In this document: piece after piece, positions 12,489 to 45,142 of the stretch | Position numbering within the stretch: the stretch's first letter is position 1 | Layout of the letters: each line of letters opens with the position of its first letter | Origin: a phage | DNA: 45,838 nucleotides | Assembly (NCBI GenBank): GCA_014143165.1 | Contig: GCA_014143165.1_4843.1 | Strand: one strand, 5' to 3' | The notes under the pieces: model-generated | What the model was told of the DNA's origin: nothing | Seen by the model: only the letters and a program-made list of their open reading frames with translations | The model's database searches: none | Made by a program: the position numbers and the translations under genes

Positions 12489-13298
12489 ATGAAAACACTC
12501 AGCAAAATATATTCAGACAAAGAAACGCGCAACGGCATCGCTGTTAACAAAACCTATCTCGTGCCAGTTGAGCAAATCTATCTGGAACCGGGCTACAACA
12601 TCCGTGAAGCAGATGAGCAGCATGTGGAATATTTCGCGCAGTGCTGGGAATCAGGTCAGCCACTGCCAGCATTAACAGTTATTCCTGACGAGAAGGGAAT
12701 CCGCATTCTTAATGGTCAGCATCGCTATCTCGGCGAATTGCGTGCCATTGAGCGTGGCGCGCCAATCGTTCGCATTGAGTGTAATGATTTTACAGGAGAC
12801 GAAGCAGATAAAATCGCCTTCATGGTGTCATCCAGTCAGGGTAAGCAGCTCGACCCGTTTGAGCGCGCAAAGGCTTACACGAGACTGAAAGGTTTTGGCT
12901 GGACGAATGAAGAAATCGCCAAAAAGGTAGGCCGCTCAGTATCTGATGTGCAAATGCATCTGTCACTGGGTGATGTTCCAGCGGAAGTGAAAGCGCGCAT
13001 CAGTGCAGGACAAATCAGCTATGCAAATGCCGTAGCGGTAACGCGCGAGCATGGTGATGATGCGGCTAAAGTTATCGACGAGGCAGTCGAAGAGGCCAAA
13101 GCACAAGGCAAAGACAAGGTCACAGCGAAAGTACTGAAGGCGAAAAAGATTAAGCCAGTAGACCGCCTGATTGAGTTATTGAAGCCAGCCGACCATGTGA
13201 TTCTCCCCGCTGGTCATGTGGTGGCAGAGGATGAGGAATTTATCCAGATTCCTGTCGCAGACATTCACGAGGTTATGGCAATTCTGGAGAAGATGTGA
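12489..13298 (+). CDS. ParB-like N-terminal-domain (ParB/Srx fold) DNA-binding protein
   Basis: N-terminal ...VPVEQIYLEPGYNIRE... and ...LNGQHRYLGELRA (ParB GERRxRA-box-like), followed by HTH-like WTNEEIAKKVGRSVSDVQMHLSL. Confidence 0.65.
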   Translation: MKTLSKIYSDKETRNGIAVNKTYLVPVEQIYLEPGYNIREADEQHVEYFAQCWESGQPLPALTVIPDEKGIRILNGQHRYLGELRAIERGAPIVRIECNDFTGDEADKIAFMVSSSQGKQLDPFERAKAYTRLKGFGWTNEEIAKKVGRSVSDVQMHLSLGDVPAEVKARISAGQISYANAVAVTREHGDDAAKVIDEAVEEAKAQGKDKVTAKVLKAKKIKPVDRLIELLKPADHVILPAGHVVAEDEEFIQIPVADIHEVMAILEKM

Positions 13299-14095
13299 TG
13301 ATAGTCCACTACTACAATGAGTGGGACAAGGGCGCAGCGGCATGGCTGCGCGAATTAATTAACAATAAACTAATTCCTTACGGATATGTCGATGAGCGAT
13401 CAATTACCGAAGTCACCCCTTCAGACCTGGAAGGATTTACACAATGTCACTTCTTTGCCGGAATCGGAGGGTGGCCCCTTGCACTCCAGCTGGCAGGAAT
13501 ACCAGAGAGCACTCGACTCTGGACAGGATCACCACCTTGCCAGCCGTTTAGCGTTGCCGGTCAGTCTCGCGGATTTGATGACGAACGACACCTTGCCCCT
13601 GTATTTCTCCGGCTCATCAGAGAGTGCAAACCTGAATTGCTATTTGGAGAGCAGGTTGCGGCAGCAATTGCAAAGCACTGGCTCGACTTTGTATTCCTTA
13701 ACCTGGAAGAAAAAGGCTACACCTGCGGGGCGGCAGTATTGCCAGCTTGCAGCGTCGGCTCTCCACAGGAAAGGAAAAGAACCATCTTTGGCGCGAGGAT
13801 GGGCGACACCAACAGCGCGAGGATGGAAGGATTATGGGAATCTCAGCAAGTCATTTTACAGAAAGGACGGAAAATTCAGGAACGATACTCTTTATCGCCA
13901 GATGTGGCTTCATGTTTATGGGATTCATGGAAACCCAAACATGGAGCAGATAAAGAAACTAGAGTCATACCAGGCGGATTTTGCGAGGCAACTCATGGGG
14001 TATCCGCAAGAGTGGGACGACTGCGCGGTTATGGCAATGCCATAGTTCCACAAGTCGCAGCAGAATTCATTAAAGCATTCATGAGGTCCGTTTAA
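13295..14095 (+). CDS. compact DNA (cytosine-5)-methyltransferase
   Basis: Motif I FFAGIGGW, motif IV GSPPCQPFSVAGQ, motif VI LLFGEQV, motif VIII GSPQERKRTIFGA, motif X GYGNAIVPQVAAEFIKAF. A second open frame (13386..14045) carries a motif-IX-like FARQLMGYPQEW (see findings). Confidence 0.7.
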   Translation: MMIVHYYNEWDKGAAAWLRELINNKLIPYGYVDERSITEVTPSDLEGFTQCHFFAGIGGWPLALQLAGIPESTRLWTGSPPCQPFSVAGQSRGFDDERHLAPVFLRLIRECKPELLFGEQVAAAIAKHWLDFVFLNLEEKGYTCGAAVLPACSVGSPQERKRTIFGARMGDTNSARMEGLWESQQVILQKGRKIQERYSLSPDVASCLWDSWKPKHGADKETRVIPGGFCEATHGVSARVGRLRGYGNAIVPQVAAEFIKAFMRSV

Positions 14096-36889: not shown

Positions 36890-37312
36890 ATGAAAAGGTA
36901 CTACATTGAGGCAGTTGGGCCTGATGGTAAAAAGGTGTATGCCAGCGGTAGATGTGGTTTTCTGCATGATTTTACCTATGCCAAGTTTTTCAAAACAATA
37001 GAGGAGGCTGAGAGGTATATGGCGTTGCGGAAGCCGCATCTCCCATGTGAAATAAAATGCAAGGAGCAAAGGGTAAAAAAACGGGCCGCGTCTGTGCGGG
37101 AGCAAAAACCGACAATGGAGGGAGAGGCTCGAAGCTTCGTCTACCGACTTGGTTTGGGTAAGGGAAAGCATTTTGTGTTTGATGATTTTGCGTTGATAAG
37201 GAGTATTGAGCAGTTGAGAATTGCGCTTTCCGTAGTTGGTAAGAAGCTGCAAAAAAAATTCAGTGTCAAGATGGTTGCACGTAATACCGCTTATGTGGTG
37301 AGGGTTAAATGA
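36890..37312 (+). CDS. hypothetical protein
   Basis: ORF in the replication block; start uncertain (36875 or 36890). Confidence 0.4.
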   Translation: MKRYYIEAVGPDGKKVYASGRCGFLHDFTYAKFFKTIEEAERYMALRKPHLPCEIKCKEQRVKKRAASVREQKPTMEGEARSFVYRLGLGKGKHFVFDDFALIRSIEQLRIALSVVGKKLQKKFSVKMVARNTAYVVRVK

Positions 37313-39642
37313 TGATTGGTTATGAAGATTACCGCAAATGTGGCTTCCCTATTATTGGAATCCATGCAATGGATATCGACCGCAATTGCACATGCGGTGA
37401 TCCAGAGTGCAATGCTGCTGGTAAGCATCCGGTTATGAGTAACTGGCAGCTTGGAGTTATATGGGCTGATGACCAGATTGAAAATATGGCTGAATATGGT
37501 CAACTGCAGTCATTCGGTGTCCTTGTGAATGGTTATCTGGTCGTTGATATTGATCCACGCAACGGAGGTAATGATGGATATGAATCTCTTTGTGATGCCT
37601 TAGACGTAGAGCTTGCTGACGAAGCTGGTTTTACGGTTAAGACTGGCGGTGGTGGTCGGCACATCTATTACAAACTTCCTGAAGGAATAAAGCTGCGCTC
37701 TCATGACAGAAGGTTTAAGGGTATTGACTTTAAATCATCTGGTTTTGTTGTTGGCTGTGGTTCTTTTCATAAAACCGGAAACTTTTATGAGGCCGAGCAT
37801 GGATCCCCTTCAGAGATAACTGAATGTCCATCTGAACTTATTGAGCTTTTGTTGCGCCCTGAGAGAACAGAAGACGAGGTTTTCACGCTTGATAGTAAAA
37901 ATTACAGCATTGCCGAAATGGAGGATATGCTCAAATACATCAAAGATGGTGATGAGTATGACCCATGGCTTCATGTAGGTATGGCTATCCACGAAGCTAC
38001 AGAAGGCAATGGTTTTGAGCTTTGGGATAGATGGTCATCGCAGTTCAGCAAATACAGAGCTGAAGAGATGGACGCAAAATGGCACTCCTTTGGAAAGGAC
38101 GGCGTTAGCGAAAAGATAACCGAAGCAACGCTGGTTTATCTCGCGCAAGAGGGAGGGTGGGTAAGGCAAGTAACTTTTGAGGCTACTCCAGAGGAAATTG
38201 AGAAACTTGAGTCTTTCGAGCGAGAGATGGCAATGGGTGTTGGGGAATGCCCTGTAGAGTACAAAAGTGTTGATGTCCGTTATCCCCCTGGATTTGTTGG
38301 TCGCCTTACGGCGTGGATTAATAAGAACTGTGCAGAGAAGCGAGAGAATATTGCAGCACTTGCTGCATTGCACGCTGCATCCATGATTTGCGGTGCGTCA
38401 TCTGATATTTACCTTACAAACAGGAAGGCTTTGCCAAACCTGTTTGCTGTTGGTATAGCTGGTTCAGGTTCTGGTAAGGGTGATGTTCTTGCTGCGCTAC
38501 AAAAGATAATTGATTGCTCAGGATTGAGCAAGACTGTCGCCGGTAAGATACGTTCAGAGCGTGCGATATATGAAGGTCTTTGCGCTAACCAGATGTTTAA
38601 TATCATCATGGATGAGATTGGGATAAAACTTGGGAGTGTTGTTGGTCAGAAAGTAAGCGAGTACAACATGGCAACCGCTGGTGCGATCATGGAGGCTTAC
38701 ACGTCAGAAGTTCTTTATTGTGACCAGCGGGTTACTGAGGATTTCATTAAGTCTTTCGAAAAAAGAAAGGCTATGCTGTTAATGGCTATTGAGGAAAATG
38801 AGATACAGGCAGACCCCGTAGACATTAAGTGTCAGTTTGATGATGTGATAAACAGAATTGACGGAGCTATAAGGAATCCATTTTTTTCAATCTTTGGTGT
38901 GTCTACTGATGATCAGTTTAAGCGACTTATCACTGAAGAAAACATTAAGTCAGGTCTTATGGGTCGCGCAATGATTATGCAGGAGTTACAGGAGATTGCT
39001 GACGAAAACGAAAACGTAAACTACTGTGATCTACCTATGGATATGCAACTGACCATAAAAACAATAATAAATGGCGGAACGGCTGGGCACAAAAACTGGA
39101 CAGACTCAATAATCAGTCAAAAAGAAAGACGGATTATAAAAGCTACGCCTGAAGTTTCTCAGCTCGCTAAAGAGTTCTTCTCATGGATTAAAACCGTTGC
39201 AAGAAAGCATGTAGAAAATGGTACTGGTTATCACCCATTGATAAACAGATGCGCCGTGAAGGTGGCAAAGATTGCTGGCATTCTCGCGTGCGATACTGGC
39301 GTCATAACCATGGAGCACTTGAGATATGCGGTAGCATTAACAATTAAATCAACAAGCGATCTGATGATGCGTGCTGACAGTATCGCCGGAGCGAAGTCTA
39401 AAGCTATGGAAGAAAGAATTGAAGGTATTTTCTCCATGGTTAAAGAATATGTTAAGCGTGGAATGACCAAAACAGCAATGGTTAGAGGGGTAGCAAAAGA
39501 AGGTGGGTATAAACGTGCTGATGTCGAGAGGTGCGTAGAGAAGTTGTTATCAGATGGTATTATTTGCATTGATGAAAATGCAAAAAGAACATCTCACAAC
39601 GTAATAATTTACAAATTAACAAATGATGAGGTTGAGATATGA
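37309..39642 (+). CDS. DNA primase-polymerase (prim-pol N-terminal domain) replication protein
   Basis: N-terminal ...GVLVNGYLVVDIDPRNGG...TVKTGGGGRHIYYKLPEG...FKGIDFKSSGFVVGCGSFH matches the prim-pol fold; 777 aa with a long C-terminal extension. Confidence 0.65.
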   Translation: MMIGYEDYRKCGFPIIGIHAMDIDRNCTCGDPECNAAGKHPVMSNWQLGVIWADDQIENMAEYGQLQSFGVLVNGYLVVDIDPRNGGNDGYESLCDALDVELADEAGFTVKTGGGGRHIYYKLPEGIKLRSHDRRFKGIDFKSSGFVVGCGSFHKTGNFYEAEHGSPSEITECPSELIELLLRPERTEDEVFTLDSKNYSIAEMEDMLKYIKDGDEYDPWLHVGMAIHEATEGNGFELWDRWSSQFSKYRAEEMDAKWHSFGKDGVSEKITEATLVYLAQEGGWVRQVTFEATPEEIEKLESFEREMAMGVGECPVEYKSVDVRYPPGFVGRLTAWINKNCAEKRENIAALAALHAASMICGASSDIYLTNRKALPNLFAVGIAGSGSGKGDVLAALQKIIDCSGLSKTVAGKIRSERAIYEGLCANQMFNIIMDEIGIKLGSVVGQKVSEYNMATAGAIMEAYTSEVLYCDQRVTEDFIKSFEKRKAMLLMAIEENEIQADPVDIKCQFDDVINRIDGAIRNPFFSIFGVSTDDQFKRLITEENIKSGLMGRAMIMQELQEIADENENVNYCDLPMDMQLTIKTIINGGTAGHKNWTDSIISQKERRIIKATPEVSQLAKEFFSWIKTVARKHVENGTGYHPLINRCAVKVAKIAGILACDTGVITMEHLRYAVALTIKSTSDLMMRADSIAGAKSKAMEERIEGIFSMVKEYVKRGMTKTAMVRGVAKEGGYKRADVERCVEKLLSDGIICIDENAKRTSHNVIIYKLTNDEVEI

Positions 39643-40437: not shown

Positions 40438-41280
40438 ATGAGCTTATCAATGATTCAAAAACCAAAACCAGCAGCGCCAATCATAACATTGGTTGGTACT
40501 CCAGGTGTAGGCAAGACAACTCTTGCGGCGCTATTCCCAAACCCAGTGTTTATTCAGGCTGAAGAGATCACTGGTGTTTTTGATGACTGGGATGATGAAA
40601 AGAAACCTGATTCATTTCCTGTTCTGAAGCGCGCTGACGCTAAACGCAAAACAAGCACAAAGGATGATTTGCTGTCACAGCTACGCGCATTAATTACTGA
40701 GGAACATAATTACAAAACGCTTGTAATTGACTCAATCACAAGCCTGCATTCAATGTTTGAGCATGAGGTTTGTGAAAATTACGGTGTTGACAACGTTGGT
40801 TCTGCGGCTGGTGGTTACAACAAAGGATATATTGTTGTTTCTGAAATGCACGCTGAAATAATAAATGCATGTAAGTATCTTCGCAAAGAAAAAGGGATGA
40901 GCATTATTTATCTTGCGCACGCAGGTGTTAAAAAGATGAAGAATCGCCCTGATGCTGATGAATACACTGTTTACACACTTGACATGCATGATGCTTCTGT
41001 TTCTGGTTATGTGAATCTTAGTGATGCTGTTATTTACATCAGGAATGAGGAGTTTGTGAAAGGTACTGAAACTGATAAAAAAGGTCAGGTAACTAAGTTT
41101 GGTAAAGTTGTTCAGACTGGTCAGCGAGTTCTTATTACCTCTGGTGATGGTCGCATTGGGTATGTTAATGCTAAAAACAGATACAACCTTGAGCCTGAAA
41201 TTCCTTTTGAAAAAGGTGAGAACCCGCTTTTGAGTGAGATTAAATATTATGCATCTCTACGAGATAACCAAACAGCTTAA
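40438..41280 (+). CDS. AAA-family ATPase (Sak4-like)
   Basis: Walker A LVGTPGVGKTT near the N-terminus; 280 aa; followed by Gp157-like and DUF669 genes. Confidence 0.7.
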   Translation: MSLSMIQKPKPAAPIITLVGTPGVGKTTLAALFPNPVFIQAEEITGVFDDWDDEKKPDSFPVLKRADAKRKTSTKDDLLSQLRALITEEHNYKTLVIDSITSLHSMFEHEVCENYGVDNVGSAAGGYNKGYIVVSEMHAEIINACKYLRKEKGMSIIYLAHAGVKKMKNRPDADEYTVYTLDMHDASVSGYVNLSDAVIYIRNEEFVKGTETDKKGQVTKFGKVVQTGQRVLITSGDGRIGYVNAKNRYNLEPEIPFEKGENPLLSEIKYYASLRDNQTA

Positions 41281-41728
41281 TGAACTGCTGGCGATGGAGG
41301 ATATTCCACGAGAGCAGATTGAAGATACTATAAACCTTATTGAAGAGGAGTTTGAAGGAAAGGCTGAAATGGTTGCTGCTTACATTCGTGAGCTTGAAGC
41401 TGATGAGGCCGGACTGAATTCTGAGATTGACCGACTTTCTGAGCGTAAGCGTGTTTTAGTTTCGAAGATTGATAATCTTAAGGATTATCTTCGTCAGAAC
41501 ATGATGGCTTCAGGAAAGACGAACATCAAAGGTAAGTTGTTCAGTATCACGCTTGGCAAACCATCACCAGTTCTTGATGTGTTTGTTCCTGTTGAGCAGC
41601 TTCCTGAGCAGTACCGTGTTGTGAAAGTGTCGGCAGATAACGCAGCGATTAAAAATGCGATTAAAGCCGGGATTGAAATTAATGGTTGTGCCATCACCGA
41701 CGGCAAACCGAAACTGATCATCAAATAA
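41249..41728 (+). CDS. Gp157-like protein
   Basis: Coiled-coil N-terminus; position between the Sak4-like ATPase and DUF669 genes; start 41249 (track start 41234). Confidence 0.45.
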   Translation: MHLYEITKQLNELLAMEDIPREQIEDTINLIEEEFEGKAEMVAAYIRELEADEAGLNSEIDRLSERKRVLVSKIDNLKDYLRQNMMASGKTNIKGKLFSITLGKPSPVLDVFVPVEQLPEQYRVVKVSADNAAIKNAIKAGIEINGCAITDGKPKLIIK

Positions 41729-41744
41729 TCGAGAGGACACAAAA

Positions 41745-42266
41745 ATGGGTTTCTGGAATCTTTCTGACGGTAAAGCTGTTGAATCTAAATCTGAATTTGA
41801 GCTGGGTGGTGGTTTCGAAGTAATTCCTGATGGTAGCCGTGTTCTTGCTGCCGTTGAAGAATGTAAAGACGACCAGTGGGAAGGTGAGCGATTCTTCAAT
41901 CTTAAGTGGAGAATCCTTGAGGGTGAATATAAAAATCGCATCATCTTCCAGAAGCTGAAAGTATTTAGCTCTAAAGAAAAGCAGCGAGACAATGCTATCA
42001 CTATGCTTGCAGCAATTGACGCAAACGCTGGTGGAAAGCTGATGGCATCAGGAAAAGAGCCGACTGATTTTGCTATTGCCAGTGCGCTTGCGAATCGCCC
42101 GATGATTCTTCTTCTGCGCGTTTGGGAATCTGAGGATAAGCAAAAAACTGGTAACTATGTGGCTGGTGTATTTGGTCGTCAACAGACAAAAGCAGCACCT
42201 GCTACTAAGCAGTCAGCGCCGTCTAACGAGCCGCCGATGGACTTTGATGATGACATTCCGTTCTGA
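41745..42266 (+). CDS. DUF669-type single-strand-binding-like protein with SSB-type C-terminal tail
   Basis: GAGAGGA RBS; C-terminus ...SAPSNEPPMDFDDDIPF is the canonical SSB acidic tip. Confidence 0.6.
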   Translation: MGFWNLSDGKAVESKSEFELGGGFEVIPDGSRVLAAVEECKDDQWEGERFFNLKWRILEGEYKNRIIFQKLKVFSSKEKQRDNAITMLAAIDANAGGKLMASGKEPTDFAIASALANRPMILLLRVWESEDKQKTGNYVAGVFGRQQTKAAPATKQSAPSNEPPMDFDDDIPF

Positions 42267-42287
42267 TGATTTGATGTTTGTTTAAAT

Positions 42288-42311
42288 GAAGCCCCGTTAA
42301 GGGGCTTTTAA
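42288..42311 (+). terminator. rho-independent terminator
   Basis: GCCCC-GTTAA-GGGGC hairpin followed by TTTTA. Confidence 0.5.
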
Positions 42312-42323
42312 TTGGAGTTTTAT

Positions 42324-42701
42324 ATGTACGAAGTTATCTGTGATTACTGCAATATTGCAACAAGACTAGCTAAAGGGAGTGAAATTTACCCGCACAGACA
42401 AGATCTTTATGCGCTTAATTTCTATCTGTGCGATTCCTGTGGTGCTTATGTTGGTTGCCATAAAAATGGTGATGGAAAAAGGCCTCTTGGAAGGGTAGCA
42501 AATGAAGAATTAAGGAAGGCAAAAAGCAAAGCACATGCTGCATTTGATCCTCTATGGAAATCAGGAAAAATGTCGCGAGGTGCTGCTTACTCTGCATTAG
42601 CTAGTTCGATGGCAATAAAAAAAGATAAATGCCACATAGGAATGTTTGATGTTAAACAATGCGAGTATGTTGTCGAGTGGTGCAAGGAGTTTTGTTTATG
42701 A
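42324..42701 (+). CDS. zinc-ribbon protein (unknown function)
   Basis: GGAG RBS then ATG 42324; CDYC...CDSCGAYVGCH zinc-binding pattern. Confidence 0.4.
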   Translation: MYEVICDYCNIATRLAKGSEIYPHRQDLYALNFYLCDSCGAYVGCHKNGDGKRPLGRVANEELRKAKSKAHAAFDPLWKSGKMSRGAAYSALASSMAIKKDKCHIGMFDVKQCEYVVEWCKEFCL

Positions 42702-44563
42702 AATATACGCTAAGGCCATACCAACAAGAAGCTGTGGATTCAGCTATGGCACACATTCGCAGCACCATCTCCTCATGCGTTATCATCCTCCCGACAGGTG
42801 CAGGAAAATCTATGGTTGTGGCAGAACTTGCATCTCGTATTTATGGTATGAGCAAAAAGCGAGTTTTGTGTATTGCTCCCACAGCGGAACTCGTCACACA
42901 AAATCGCGCTAAATATCTTCTTACTGGAGAGCCAGCCAGCATGTTCAGTGCGAAGGCCGGACCAAAGAACCTGCGCCATCCGGTTGTTTTTGGCTCACCA
43001 GTTACAATCAAGAACTCAATAGAGATGTTTGGTGATAAGTATGGTGCTGTCATTATTGATGAGTGTGATGGAATAACACCAACCATTAAATTTATTATTA
43101 ATGAGATGAAGCGCCGAAATCCAAAGCTGCGTGTTATTGGGATGACCGCTACGCCTTATCGCCTTGGAACTGGATACATCTACAAAGAGCACTACCTAGA
43201 CGGTCCTACAGATGAAGAAACAGCCATAGACCCATATTACGACAAAGTCGTTTATGAGCTTGAAGCTAAATTTCTCATCGAAAATGGATATCTTACGCCA
43301 CCAGTTACAGATCCTGTTTTTGACGAGTATGATACGTCTTGTCTTGAAAAGGATAAGTTAGGTCGGTACACAACAGCTTCAGTTGAAAAGGCGATGGTTG
43401 GCAAGGGGAGGAAAACATCACGCATTGTTGAAGATATTATCCGTCGCTCTGTTAATCGGCGCGGAACGATGATTTTTGCCAGCACCAAGAAGCACGCTAT
43501 GGAGATAATGGAGTCGCTTCCTCCAGGTTCTTATAGCTATGTTTTTGGTGATATGCCAACATCAGATCGCAACAAGGCAATATCAGACTTCAAGTCGCAA
43601 AAAGTTAAATACATCGTCAACCAGAATATCCTTACTGTAGGGGTGGATGTTCCTCATTGTGATCACATAGCAGTAATGAGAGCCACAGAATCACCAAGAC
43701 TGTACCAGCAAATAATTGGCAGGGGGACGCGTCTTTATGAAGGTAAGCAAGACTTTCTTGTCAGCGATTACGCAGGCAATATTCAGCGACACTTTTCTGA
43801 GACCGGGGACTTGTTCACTCCAGAAATAAAAGCAACAAGGAAAAAACCATCAGTCCCAATGGATGTTAAATGCCCGTTATGTGGATTTATCAATGAATTT
43901 GGTGTGCGTCCTAATCCTGAAAATCTTGAAGTTGACAAGGAAGGTTACTGGCTTGATTTGGCTGGTGACAGAGTGATGATTGATATTTTTGATAAGTCAG
44001 GTGAAAAAATTGGAAGCAAACCTATGCCTGCTCATTTTGGCAGAAGATGTAAAAACTACGTTATGCAAGGTCCACTAAGAGAAATGCACAGATGTACTTA
44101 TAAATGGTCGGTAAAAGAGTGTCCTGATTGCGGGTTTGAAAATGATATAGCGGCAAGAAACTGCACATCATGCGGCGCTGAAATCATTGACCCAAACCAA
44201 AAGCTAAAGGAAGAAGCTGACAGGCTTGATTCTTCTCCTTATGCAACCAAGCAATCAAGCGTAACCATGATGAACATCATGAAGCATTACGTTTCAAGCG
44301 GTGAAGATTTGGTGCACGTAAAATTTGCTATTGAACAGAAACCATTTTTTGTTAGCAAGTTCTACAATCCAAACTCTGAGAAGGAATGGATGAAGAAGGA
44401 GTGGGAAGAGTTTTGTGAGAAGTGCTTTGGTGAATCCGACATGTCAATTGATGACGCAATAGCAAAAAGAGATGAGGCTGTCGCGCCATCAGTGATTATG
44501 TTCAGAAGAGATAAGGGTAGTAAATATTTCAACGTTAAAGGCATGTATTGGGGGGTATTATGA
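42698..44563 (+). CDS. SF2 DNA helicase with C-terminal zinc ribbons
   Basis: Walker A ILPTGAGKS, DExD-type IIDECD, motif III TATPYR, motif VI QQIIGRGTRL; C-terminal CPLCG and CPDCG...CTSCG. Confidence 0.8.
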   Translation: MKYTLRPYQQEAVDSAMAHIRSTISSCVIILPTGAGKSMVVAELASRIYGMSKKRVLCIAPTAELVTQNRAKYLLTGEPASMFSAKAGPKNLRHPVVFGSPVTIKNSIEMFGDKYGAVIIDECDGITPTIKFIINEMKRRNPKLRVIGMTATPYRLGTGYIYKEHYLDGPTDEETAIDPYYDKVVYELEAKFLIENGYLTPPVTDPVFDEYDTSCLEKDKLGRYTTASVEKAMVGKGRKTSRIVEDIIRRSVNRRGTMIFASTKKHAMEIMESLPPGSYSYVFGDMPTSDRNKAISDFKSQKVKYIVNQNILTVGVDVPHCDHIAVMRATESPRLYQQIIGRGTRLYEGKQDFLVSDYAGNIQRHFSETGDLFTPEIKATRKKPSVPMDVKCPLCGFINEFGVRPNPENLEVDKEGYWLDLAGDRVMIDIFDKSGEKIGSKPMPAHFGRRCKNYVMQGPLREMHRCTYKWSVKECPDCGFENDIAARNCTSCGAEIIDPNQKLKEEADRLDSSPYATKQSSVTMMNIMKHYVSSGEDLVHVKFAIEQKPFFVSKFYNPNSEKEWMKKEWEEFCEKCFGESDMSIDDAIAKRDEAVAPSVIMFRRDKGSKYFNVKGMYWGVL

Positions 44564-45015
44564 TTTTTCCAGAAGGCGTTAAGGTATATGGCGATTTAGA
44601 TTACAGAAACAAAAAGTGCCCGTCAGAAGATGCTGAGCTGGAGACTTTTGTTAATCAGATAAGGAAGCTATATCCTGACTTTGCAAGAGTTATGATTCAT
44701 GTGCCAAATGAAGGAAAGCGTAAAGGGTATGAAGTTGAAAACCTGAAGAAAAAGGGCGCGTTAAACTTCGGCGCCTCGGACATCATTATCGTCGGAAAGC
44801 AATCATTTGTTATGGAGATGAAAAGAATGGATCATACTTTATCAAAATGGCAGCCAGGTCAAATGGCATACCTCAAGGCTGCAAAAGAATTAGACTCCTT
44901 CGCGTGTGTATGCCTCGGTTGGGAAGCGGCGATGATGGCATTTAACGACTGGAGAGCAATAAATTACCCAAACTATAAAAAACCATCAGAGCCATTGATA
45001 TTTGATGGTTTTTAG
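44560..45015 (+). CDS. VRR-NUC domain nuclease
   Basis: ATG overlaps the helicase stop (ATGA); PD-(D/E)xK-type GASDIIIV...FVMEMKR; ends at TAG 45013-45015. Confidence 0.65.
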   Translation: MIFPEGVKVYGDLDYRNKKCPSEDAELETFVNQIRKLYPDFARVMIHVPNEGKRKGYEVENLKKKGALNFGASDIIIVGKQSFVMEMKRMDHTLSKWQPGQMAYLKAAKELDSFACVCLGWEAAMMAFNDWRAINYPNYKKPSEPLIFDGF

Positions 45016-45132
45016 CAACCACGCCAGCAATCAGGCCAACAACCGCAACGACAACAACAGCCACCAAAACAACAAAGCCCACAAGGAGGGAATGAGCCTC
45101 CTATGGACTTCGATGATTCAATACCCTTCTGA
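45016..45132 (+). other. in-frame post-amber extension encoding an SSB-type linker and acidic tail
   Basis: Same frame as VRR-NUC, directly after TAG: QPRQQSGQQPQRQQQPPKQQSPQGGNEPPMDFDDSIPF then TGA, then terminator. Confidence 0.35.
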
Positions 45133-45142
45133 TGATAAAACT

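Follow-up and report, generated by a model that had tools for sequence, protein, structure and literature searches.

This study concerns a gene encoding an SSB (single-stranded DNA-binding protein) in a stretch of phage DNA of 45,838 nt (contig GCA_014143165.1_4843.1 of NCBI GenBank assembly GCA_014143165.1), referred to below as the window. The gene, ssb, encodes a protein of 173 amino acids (aa) in which a non-canonical core is followed by a C-terminal tail identical to that of Escherichia coli SSB (Table 1).

By its profile matches, the protein belongs to Pfam DUF669 and, with it, to the N4/DUF669 class of predicted phage SSBs. DUF669 (PF05037) aligns to residues 23-135 (profile positions 10-121 of 138) with 25.6 bits and an E-value of 1.5e-5, above the curated gathering cut-off of 21 bits; a PF05037 hit is precomputed for many close homologues, and PHROG 9002 ('single strand DNA binding protein') matches the protein end to end (E 2.4e-69). 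We found 195 homologues, and the N-terminus M[GS]FWNLSD that is conserved among homologues backs the start codon. An exhaustive profile search returned 1122 clusters at 50% identity, 589 of them at E up to 1e-10. Models of canonical SSBs from PDB and NCBIfam hit the tail segment only: NCBIfam PRK09010 aligns to residues 142-173 alone (29.3 bits vs a cut-off of 260 bits), the alignment with E. coli SSB (PDB 1EQQ) is confined to residues 127-173, and the canonical OB domain (PF00436) was not matched in the Pfam scan. These comparisons place the protein outside the canonical SSB family, whose core is absent. A divergent OB fold is predicted instead. The AlphaFold2 (AF2) model has the order β1-3, helices, β4-5, and its nearest structural neighbours are PrgE, which was solved with single-stranded DNA (ssDNA), and then the OB folds of SSB and RPA; pLDDT lies below 50 across residues 148-168. 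PrgE was not found by sequence with the family profile, which gave no link to any other solved structure either. Searching the window by tblastn with the SSBs of E. coli and the related phage Bas80 yielded two C-terminal tails without an OB domain and no second complete SSB, and the relative Sf11 has one annotated SSB.

The tail was compared with that of E. coli SSB codon by codon. The C-terminus of the phage protein (...KQSAPSNEPPMDFDDDIPF) and that of its E. coli counterpart (...QQSAPAAPSNEPPMDFDDDIPF; WP_000168305, from a complete genome) agree in all 16 final residues, the tip nonapeptide MDFDDDIPF included. At the DNA level the uninterrupted identity spans 53 nt, that is, the last 17 codons including TGA plus the two preceding bases, and the synonymous sites match too. 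Given the peptide and the codon usage of the phage, the chance of all 16 sense codons coinciding is 2.3e-7, and third-position GC is 0.69 in the tail vs 0.35 in the remainder of the gene. Because the 53 nt are identical codon for codon, stop included, neither chance nor mere convergence accounts for the identity of the tail. The homology to E. coli ends at the stop codon, beyond which the DNA is that of a phage with no E. coli flank. The gene is thus a chimera of a phage core and an Escherichia-type ssb 3' end. The initial annotation of this open reading frame (ORF), made from the letters alone, had called it a DUF669 SSB-like protein, stated that its tail equals the tip of E. coli SSB and suggested an alignment with the host protein. 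The profile matches bear out the first point, and the alignment confirms the second, with 16 residues of the 17-mer singled out there matching and the tail conserved down to the DNA.

As to the donor, the 3' end of chromosomal ssb was matched by blastn in 5426 of 5426 complete E. coli genomes, while the Salmonella gene differs from the tail DNA at 5 of 53 sites, all synonymous. When 185,579 bacterial species, each represented by a single genome, were scanned for exact matches, the 53-mer turned up in only three records: a pair of chromosomes bearing the label Enterobacter hormaechei and a low-coverage contig of 257 bp. Two other kinds of donor were rejected: true conjugative-plasmid ssb genes are only about 80-82% identical, and the canonical ssb genes of phages and prophages, though coding for the same ...SNEPPMDFDDDIPF, deviate at 9-17 of 53 nt. 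Among the donors compared, chromosomal E. coli-type ssb alone reached 53-54 of 54 nt, and by this measure the tail coding DNA is a copy of an Escherichia-type chromosomal ssb. Separately, odd PDB hits to the tail are explained by Dictyostelium myosin-2 motor constructs (2xel, 2xo8, 7b1a and others) with SNEPPMDFDDDIPF at the C-terminus, seemingly an SSB tail engineered in as a tag and irrelevant to the biology of this phage.

Table 1. Features of the ssb locus and its surroundings (window coordinates).
Feature	Position	Strand	Basis and remarks
PrimPol / PriCT-2 / DUF3987 primase-helicase	37309..39642	+	Head of replication module; Pfam hits
Sak4-like RecA-core annealase (AAA_24)	40438..41280	+	Pfam AAA_24 E 1.9e-27; PHROG 124 'Sak4-like' E 6.3e-46
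Sipho_Gp157 (PHROGs label 'Gam-like')	41234..41728	+	Between sak4 and ssb; PF05565 E 4.9e-38; PHROG 253
Shine-Dalgarno-like GAGAGGA	41731..41737	+	Ends 7 nt 5' of ssb ATG; read from sequence
DUF669-type phage SSB gene (ssb)	41745..42266	+	173 aa, ATG start, stop included; ORF list and translation
Predicted OB-fold core	41814..42173	+	Residues about 24-143: β1-β2-β3, helices, β4-β5
Short disordered linker QQTKAAPATKQS	42180..42215	+	Residues 146-157
Host-derived SSB C-terminal tail APSNEPPMDFDDDIPF and TGA stop	42214..42266	+	53 nt identical to E. coli ssb; codon-by-codon comparison
Terminator-like hairpin GAAGCCCC-GUUAA-GGGGCUUU, then UAAUU	42288..42308	+	RNA fold -15.3 kcal/mol, z -2.8
DUF3268 zinc-finger protein	42312-42701		Downstream of ssb
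SF2 helicase (ResIII and Helicase_C)	42659..44563	+	Downstream of ssb; Pfam hits
155-aa nuclease-like (VRR-NUC-like) ORF	44548-45015	+
Orphan SSB C-terminus, QPRQQ...NEPPMDFDDSIPF	45016..45135	+	38 codons and TGA TGA; no OB domain

Variation and exchange of the tail

An ending of the form acidic-[IVLM][PG][FWY] is found in 105 of the 148 top cluster representatives, and most of the others are near variants. The homologue in Brucella phage Pr ends in HDLDDEIPF, the common alphaproteobacterial motif for the last eight residues (C8) of SSB. Across these alignments the acidic tip is a trait of the DUF669 family, and the extended protein and DNA identity with E. coli is peculiar to the lineage of the window. 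Among 60 proteins at least 94% identical, variation gathers in the last 30 residues: the minor-allele frequency is 0.005 for residues 1-145, 0.09 for the linker and 0.12 for the tail. Within the tail, positions 168, 169 and 171 vary (DDD-I, DSD-V, SDD-V, NED-I and others), and DF at 166-167, D170 and PF at 172-173 change hardly or not at all. On average, pairs of DNA sequences diverge by 4.5% in the core and by 17.8% in the tail. The share of amino-acid-changing codons is 0.8% in the core vs 12% in linker and tail, and that of synonymous differences 13% vs 23%.

Measured against E. coli ssb, the tails of relatives differ at 3-12 of 53 sites, and those of the window and of the metagenome contigs L097 and L098 at none; contig L099 encodes a protein identical to that of the window with five synonymous differences in the tail. 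The distribution of tail types is incongruent with the tree of the core, and the window and phage YX3973 differ at 10 of 53 tail sites and 9 of 469 sites elsewhere (Fisher p 2e-6), on which grounds vertical inheritance of the tail with the core as the sole process was rejected. The correlation between the two halves of the core is r 0.50, and that between core and tail r 0.36. The whole ssb gene is thus recombinogenic, and the host-identical tail may stem either from one ancestral capture with later divergence or from repeated re-conversion by host ssb.

In some SSBs the DDDIPF tip is followed by an extension of roughly 15 residues (DFDDDIPF-APVGLQYANHAIYVL or -APVTLPFPRHAIHAI). It occurs on DUF669-type proteins (P0061, P0066, P0067 and L105, the SSB of Pseudomonas phage Torfinnsbu, 2489-3265) as well as on canonical OB-type phage or prophage SSBs (L034-L036, L040, L043, L052, L056, L078, L082, L085, L087). 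Such an extension may represent a masked tip or a second docking motif, since the carboxylate of the terminal Phe, to which the pockets of partners bind, would be buried by it.

The DNA behind the gene is mosaic as well. Between the stop codon and the end of the hairpin (window 42267-42320; the hairpin was not among the calls of a consensus terminator scan), the sequence is almost the same as that found in Salmonella phage Vi II-E1 (L088 5043-5100) 3' of its ssb, a canonical OB-fold gene paired with Erf and ExoVIII; phage gmqsjt-1 (L005) was included in this comparison. Sf11 and YX3973 carry another terminator (GGGCCATTCGTGGCCC) and no DUF3268 gene, and for this reason we place a mosaic joint right at the ssb stop codon. 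Phages such as Bas80, about 90% identical to the first 25 kb of the window, carry in its place an ExoVIII - annealase - canonical SSB module, the SSB of which has the tip DFDDSIPF. Because Bas80-type phages carry the canonical module, two unrelated SSB cores alternate in one phage group, both with tips resembling the SSB C-terminal (SSB-Ct) peptide.

A second SSB tip without a DNA-binding domain

The other tail retrieved by tblastn stands alone. Codons 45016-45129 read QPRQQSGQQPQRQQQPPKQQSPQGGNEPPMDFDDSIPF, followed by TGA TGA and a terminator hairpin, and are 82% identical at the protein level to the C-terminus of the canonical SSB of Bas80 (E 4e-16, tblastn). The segment continues the reading frame of the 155-aa nuclease-like ORF straight behind its TAG stop and adjoins the tail-fibre gene, the site of canonical ssb in Bas80 and Vi II-E1. 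Because it sits at this site and lacks an OB domain, it looks like a relic of module replacement. Its conservation (8 of 8 relatives checked), the rarity of internal stops (a single one) and its nonsynonymous and synonymous substitution rates (dN 0.058, dS 0.86, with dS 0.20 in the adjacent ORF), however, do not fit a simple relic. An in-frame ATG would yield the 9-mer MDFDDSIPF, and AAGGAGG ends 14 nt before this ATG.

In the RSU-F4K5 clade (four genomes, roughly 80% identity) the same position is taken by a 24-codon ORF with an unrelated linker, in which the nuclease stop (TAA or TGA) is followed at once by an in-frame ATG and the sequence MKPSNTSKPP[AE]N[ED]PPMDFDDDIPF (Klebsiella phage RSU-F4K5, L111 873-948; L112-L114 1160-1234). 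This mini-ORF equals the 22 C-terminal residues of another canonical SSB type (L027-L030). It carries no annotation in the GenBank record and is missing behind more distant nuclease homologues. Expression as part of the nuclease was considered and rejected in two forms: no homologue of the 155-aa ORF exceeds 152 aa, which speaks against a nuclease-tip fusion protein, and read-through of TAG by a phage suppressor tRNA is contradicted by the lack of any tRNA in the window and by TAA in two relatives.

Matching at 31 of 39 nt and separated by 2866 nt, the two tip segments (42216-42266 and 45094-45132) are an imperfect direct repeat that flanks the DUF3268, helicase and nuclease genes, and in Sf11 and Sa179lw both copies have lineage-specific codon choices in common. 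The tips of one genome differ at 7.9 of 39 nt vs 9.0 for cross-genome pairs (permutation p 0.02), no more than a weak sign of within-genome gene conversion between them. Two accounts are conceivable: recombination with functional ssb genes may overwrite an orphan relic time and again, or the phages, those of the RSU-F4K5 clade at least, may produce a free SSB-Ct peptide. Our literature search found no description of a phage-encoded free SSB-Ct peptide. If such a peptide existed and were translated here, it would be a soluble phage product filling the SSB-binding pockets of host or phage proteins, a natural counterpart of the competitor peptides used in vitro. A broader idea, which we regard as doubtful, is that in this phage group the SSB-Ct segment behaves as a small mobile cassette moving between the E. 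coli chromosome, canonical phage ssb and DUF669 ssb, with a copy in the free-standing tip ORF.

Gene neighbourhood and proposed role of the tip

On the same strand, sak4 lies two genes upstream of ssb, with gp157 between them. Distant homologues stand in the order primase - Sak4 - SSB - helicase in Brucella phage Pr, Pseudomonas phage Torfinnsbu and Pseudoalteromonas phage H103 too, and a Sak4 - SSB arrangement of this kind has already been described (PMC5928155, PMC8093625). A search for DNA polymerases (families A, B and C) among the window ORFs of at least 230 aa and in the Sf11 annotation found none, and for this reason the phage probably depends on host Pol III. Phages that infect E. coli, Klebsiella, Salmonella and Shigella match the window over 25 kb at 90-92% identity, which supports the enterobacterial host proposed in the initial annotation; that the tail DNA is an Escherichia-type allele makes the host signal sharper than genus level. 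Elsewhere in the window, a C-5 cytosine DNA methyltransferase gene (13295-14095, +; Pfam DNA_methylase E 8.5e-22) adjoins a ParB/KorB-like gene (12489-13298) and presumably serves anti-restriction.

We think it likely that the phage SSB, through its host-type tip, docks partners of the host SSB and, probably, its own Sak4 too. E. coli SSB recruits at least 17 genome-maintenance partners via the nine-residue tip MDFDDDIPF (PMC7145534, PMC10018359), and in phage HK620 both the binding of Sak4 to ssDNA coated with SSB and a 10-fold stimulation of recombineering depend on the six C-terminal residues of that SSB (PMC5928155). In the proposed mechanism, the non-canonical OB-fold core (DUF669, with a PrgE-like fold) would coat phage ssDNA, the short disordered linker would bear the SSB-Ct docking peptide copied from Escherichia-type ssb, and the protein would operate within a primase - Sak4 - Gp157 - SSB - helicase module for replication and recombination. 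The exposed ...MDFDDDIPF tips on phage ssDNA would offer the same handle as host SSB and could draw the Pol III chi subunit, primase, PriA, RecQ, ExoI and other host partners to phage DNA, and the phage Sak4 annealase would probably load through the same tip. Because the tip is identical to the nonapeptide of host SSB, we infer the recruitment of host factors. The binding of ssDNA, every protein-protein contact and the ranking of the partners are likewise inferred. The initial annotation had proposed that the tail engages, or competes for, the interaction network of host SSB, a plausible and reasonable reading of the nonapeptide identity; Sak4, by analogy a likely partner of the tip, was absent from it.

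Several results weigh against this reading. Close relatives do well with the tips DFDSDVPF, DFSDDVPF and DFNEDIPF, so exact identity with the host tip is not required. The HK620 tip, NDYPPF, is not host-identical, yet it is functional. Similarity between the window SSB and HK620 SSB went undetected (BLASTP E 11, hhalign probability 0.1), so the Sak4-docking precedent transfers by context and by the remote-homology statement of that paper. The structural model of the protein is only moderately confident (pLDDT 71.8). Finally, the screen for polymerases was limited to ORFs of at least 230 aa, and the window is perhaps short of up to about 1 kb of genome.

The strongest competitor to host docking is that the tail mainly loads phage Sak4 onto SSB-coated ssDNA, with host partners insignificant and the likeness to host SSB a by-product: Sak4-type proteins would have come to recognise SSB-Ct-like tips, which recombination with ssb supplies. 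We consider this possible, though clearly the less probable account. The sole direct experiment on this kind of protein implicates Sak4 (PMC5928155), sak4 is close to ssb here and in the Brucella, Pseudomonas and Pseudoalteromonas phages, and the function of single-strand annealing proteins (SSAPs) generally relies on compatibility with the C-terminal 7-8 residues of SSB (PMC13490951). A host-identical tip, however, cannot escape host partners that recognise the nonapeptide alone. The tip also follows the host clade (DDDIPF vs the DLDDEIPF of the Brucella phage), as expected if host proteins read it, and a phage in which the polymerase screen found nothing relies on replication enzymes of the host and on contacts with its replisome. 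For both reasons we count host proteins among the readers of the tip. Docking of host partners and loading of Sak4 are compatible, and we consider a shared hub the best explanation.

An unlikely alternative is that many host-type tips act as competitors or decoys, titrating ExoI, RecJ and RecQ off host SSB or phage DNA ends, whereby phage intermediates would be protected or host DNA metabolism shut down. The tip is indeed identical to that of the host, the same has been proposed for ExoI and the SSB-like trigger Bas52_0087 with its FDDDIPF tip (bioRxiv 10.64898/2026.04.29.721553), and the second tip (45016-45132), free of DNA binding, could act by competition only, if expressed. The conserved OB core and the module context nevertheless suit an SSB at work in replication and recombination, neither toxicity nor host shut-off is in evidence, and competition and recruitment are not mutually exclusive. 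Less likely still is a tail that serves chiefly as an intramolecular regulator, folding onto the OB domain to set ssDNA affinity and cooperativity, as has been described for T7 gp2.5, T4 gp32 and E. coli SSB, with recruitment secondary. Acidic SSB tails are known to contact their own DNA-binding surface, and HK620 SSB is bound by Sak4 only with ssDNA present, implying a masked tail (both PMC5928155), but charge alone would conserve neither the terminal [IV]PF nor a host-clade-specific motif, and the 53-nt identity to host ssb would be left unexplained. That the tail is an assembly or chimeric-read artefact of phage and E. coli DNA, for which the short junction (53 nt) and the abundance of host DNA in phage and metagenome samples could be cited, is hardly credible given the same gene structure in the isolated, completely sequenced phages Sf11, YX3973, Sa179lw and gmqsjt-1 and in independent metagenome contigs (two with a 53/53 tail, L097 and L098), the phage DNA after the stop without E. 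coli flank, and a tail that is in frame and family-wide.

Comparison with known systems

Acidic tails of DUF669 proteins (2016), a functional tail in HK620 (2018) and a proposed competition for host partners by Bas52_0087 (2026) are already published, and the kind of protein and the idea of a partner-engaging tail are therefore not new. New details are the host DNA copied verbatim, the tip that recombines, the cassette of tip and terminator shared by unrelated cores, and the orphan tip ORF. Together, a non-homologous SSB core and the exact docking peptide of the host would make a clean natural case of motif-level mimicry upheld by DNA exchange. With no polymerase detected, the tip would be the most obvious route by which the host replisome and repair machinery could service phage ssDNA and Sak4 could be loaded. 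Compatibility of SSB tips may be worth considering when Sak4/SSB pairs are used for recombineering. Now that several defence systems are turning out to sense phage SSBs, testable leads come from the way the tip varies between nearly identical phages and from the orphan tip ORF.

HK620 SSB (HkaK/Abc1; Hutinet et al. 2018, PMC5928155), described as DUF669-type, resembles the window SSB in being non-canonical, in its proximity to a Sak4 gene and in its short acidic tail ending in PF, and the Sak4 proteins of both hit AAA_24 and PHROG 124. Direct homology of the two SSBs was not detectable by BLASTP, hhalign, Pfam or PHROG. Unlike the window SSB, that of HK620 has no Pfam hit (hmmscan), falls into PHROG 743 rather than 9002 and differs in its tip; HK620 itself is lambdoid and temperate and has the replication genes O and P. 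PrgE of plasmid pCF10 (PDB 8S4S/8S4T; PMC11137577), the best structural neighbour of the model at 13% identity, is encoded by a plasmid conjugation gene outside any Sak4 module, and no SSB-Ct-type tip is reported for it (PMC11137577). Bas52_0087, the trigger of DRT10 that has been proposed to interface or compete with host ExoI (bioRxiv 10.64898/2026.04.29.721553), is likewise a non-canonical SSB-like protein with the E. coli C-tip. Unlike the window SSB, it has two OB domains, is larger, with escape substitutions reported at residues 252 and 351, and has no reported relationship to DUF669.

The DUF669 proteins were predicted to be SSBs with acidic, SSB-like C-terminal tails by Kazlauskas 2016 (PMC4889955), and the window SSB shares with this DUF669 / N4-SSB-like class the acidic tail, a predicted divergent OB fold and the lack of a complete canonical SSB alongside. 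With E. coli SSB (PF00436; PDB 1EQQ) it shares the tail, whereas the cores are unrelated in sequence, and its linker of about 12 residues compares with 56 residues in the intrinsically disordered linker (IDL) of the E. coli protein (PMC7145534). With 16 residues and 53 nt that are identical in E. coli, the tail of the window SSB goes beyond the acidic, SSB-like norm of the DUF669 class.

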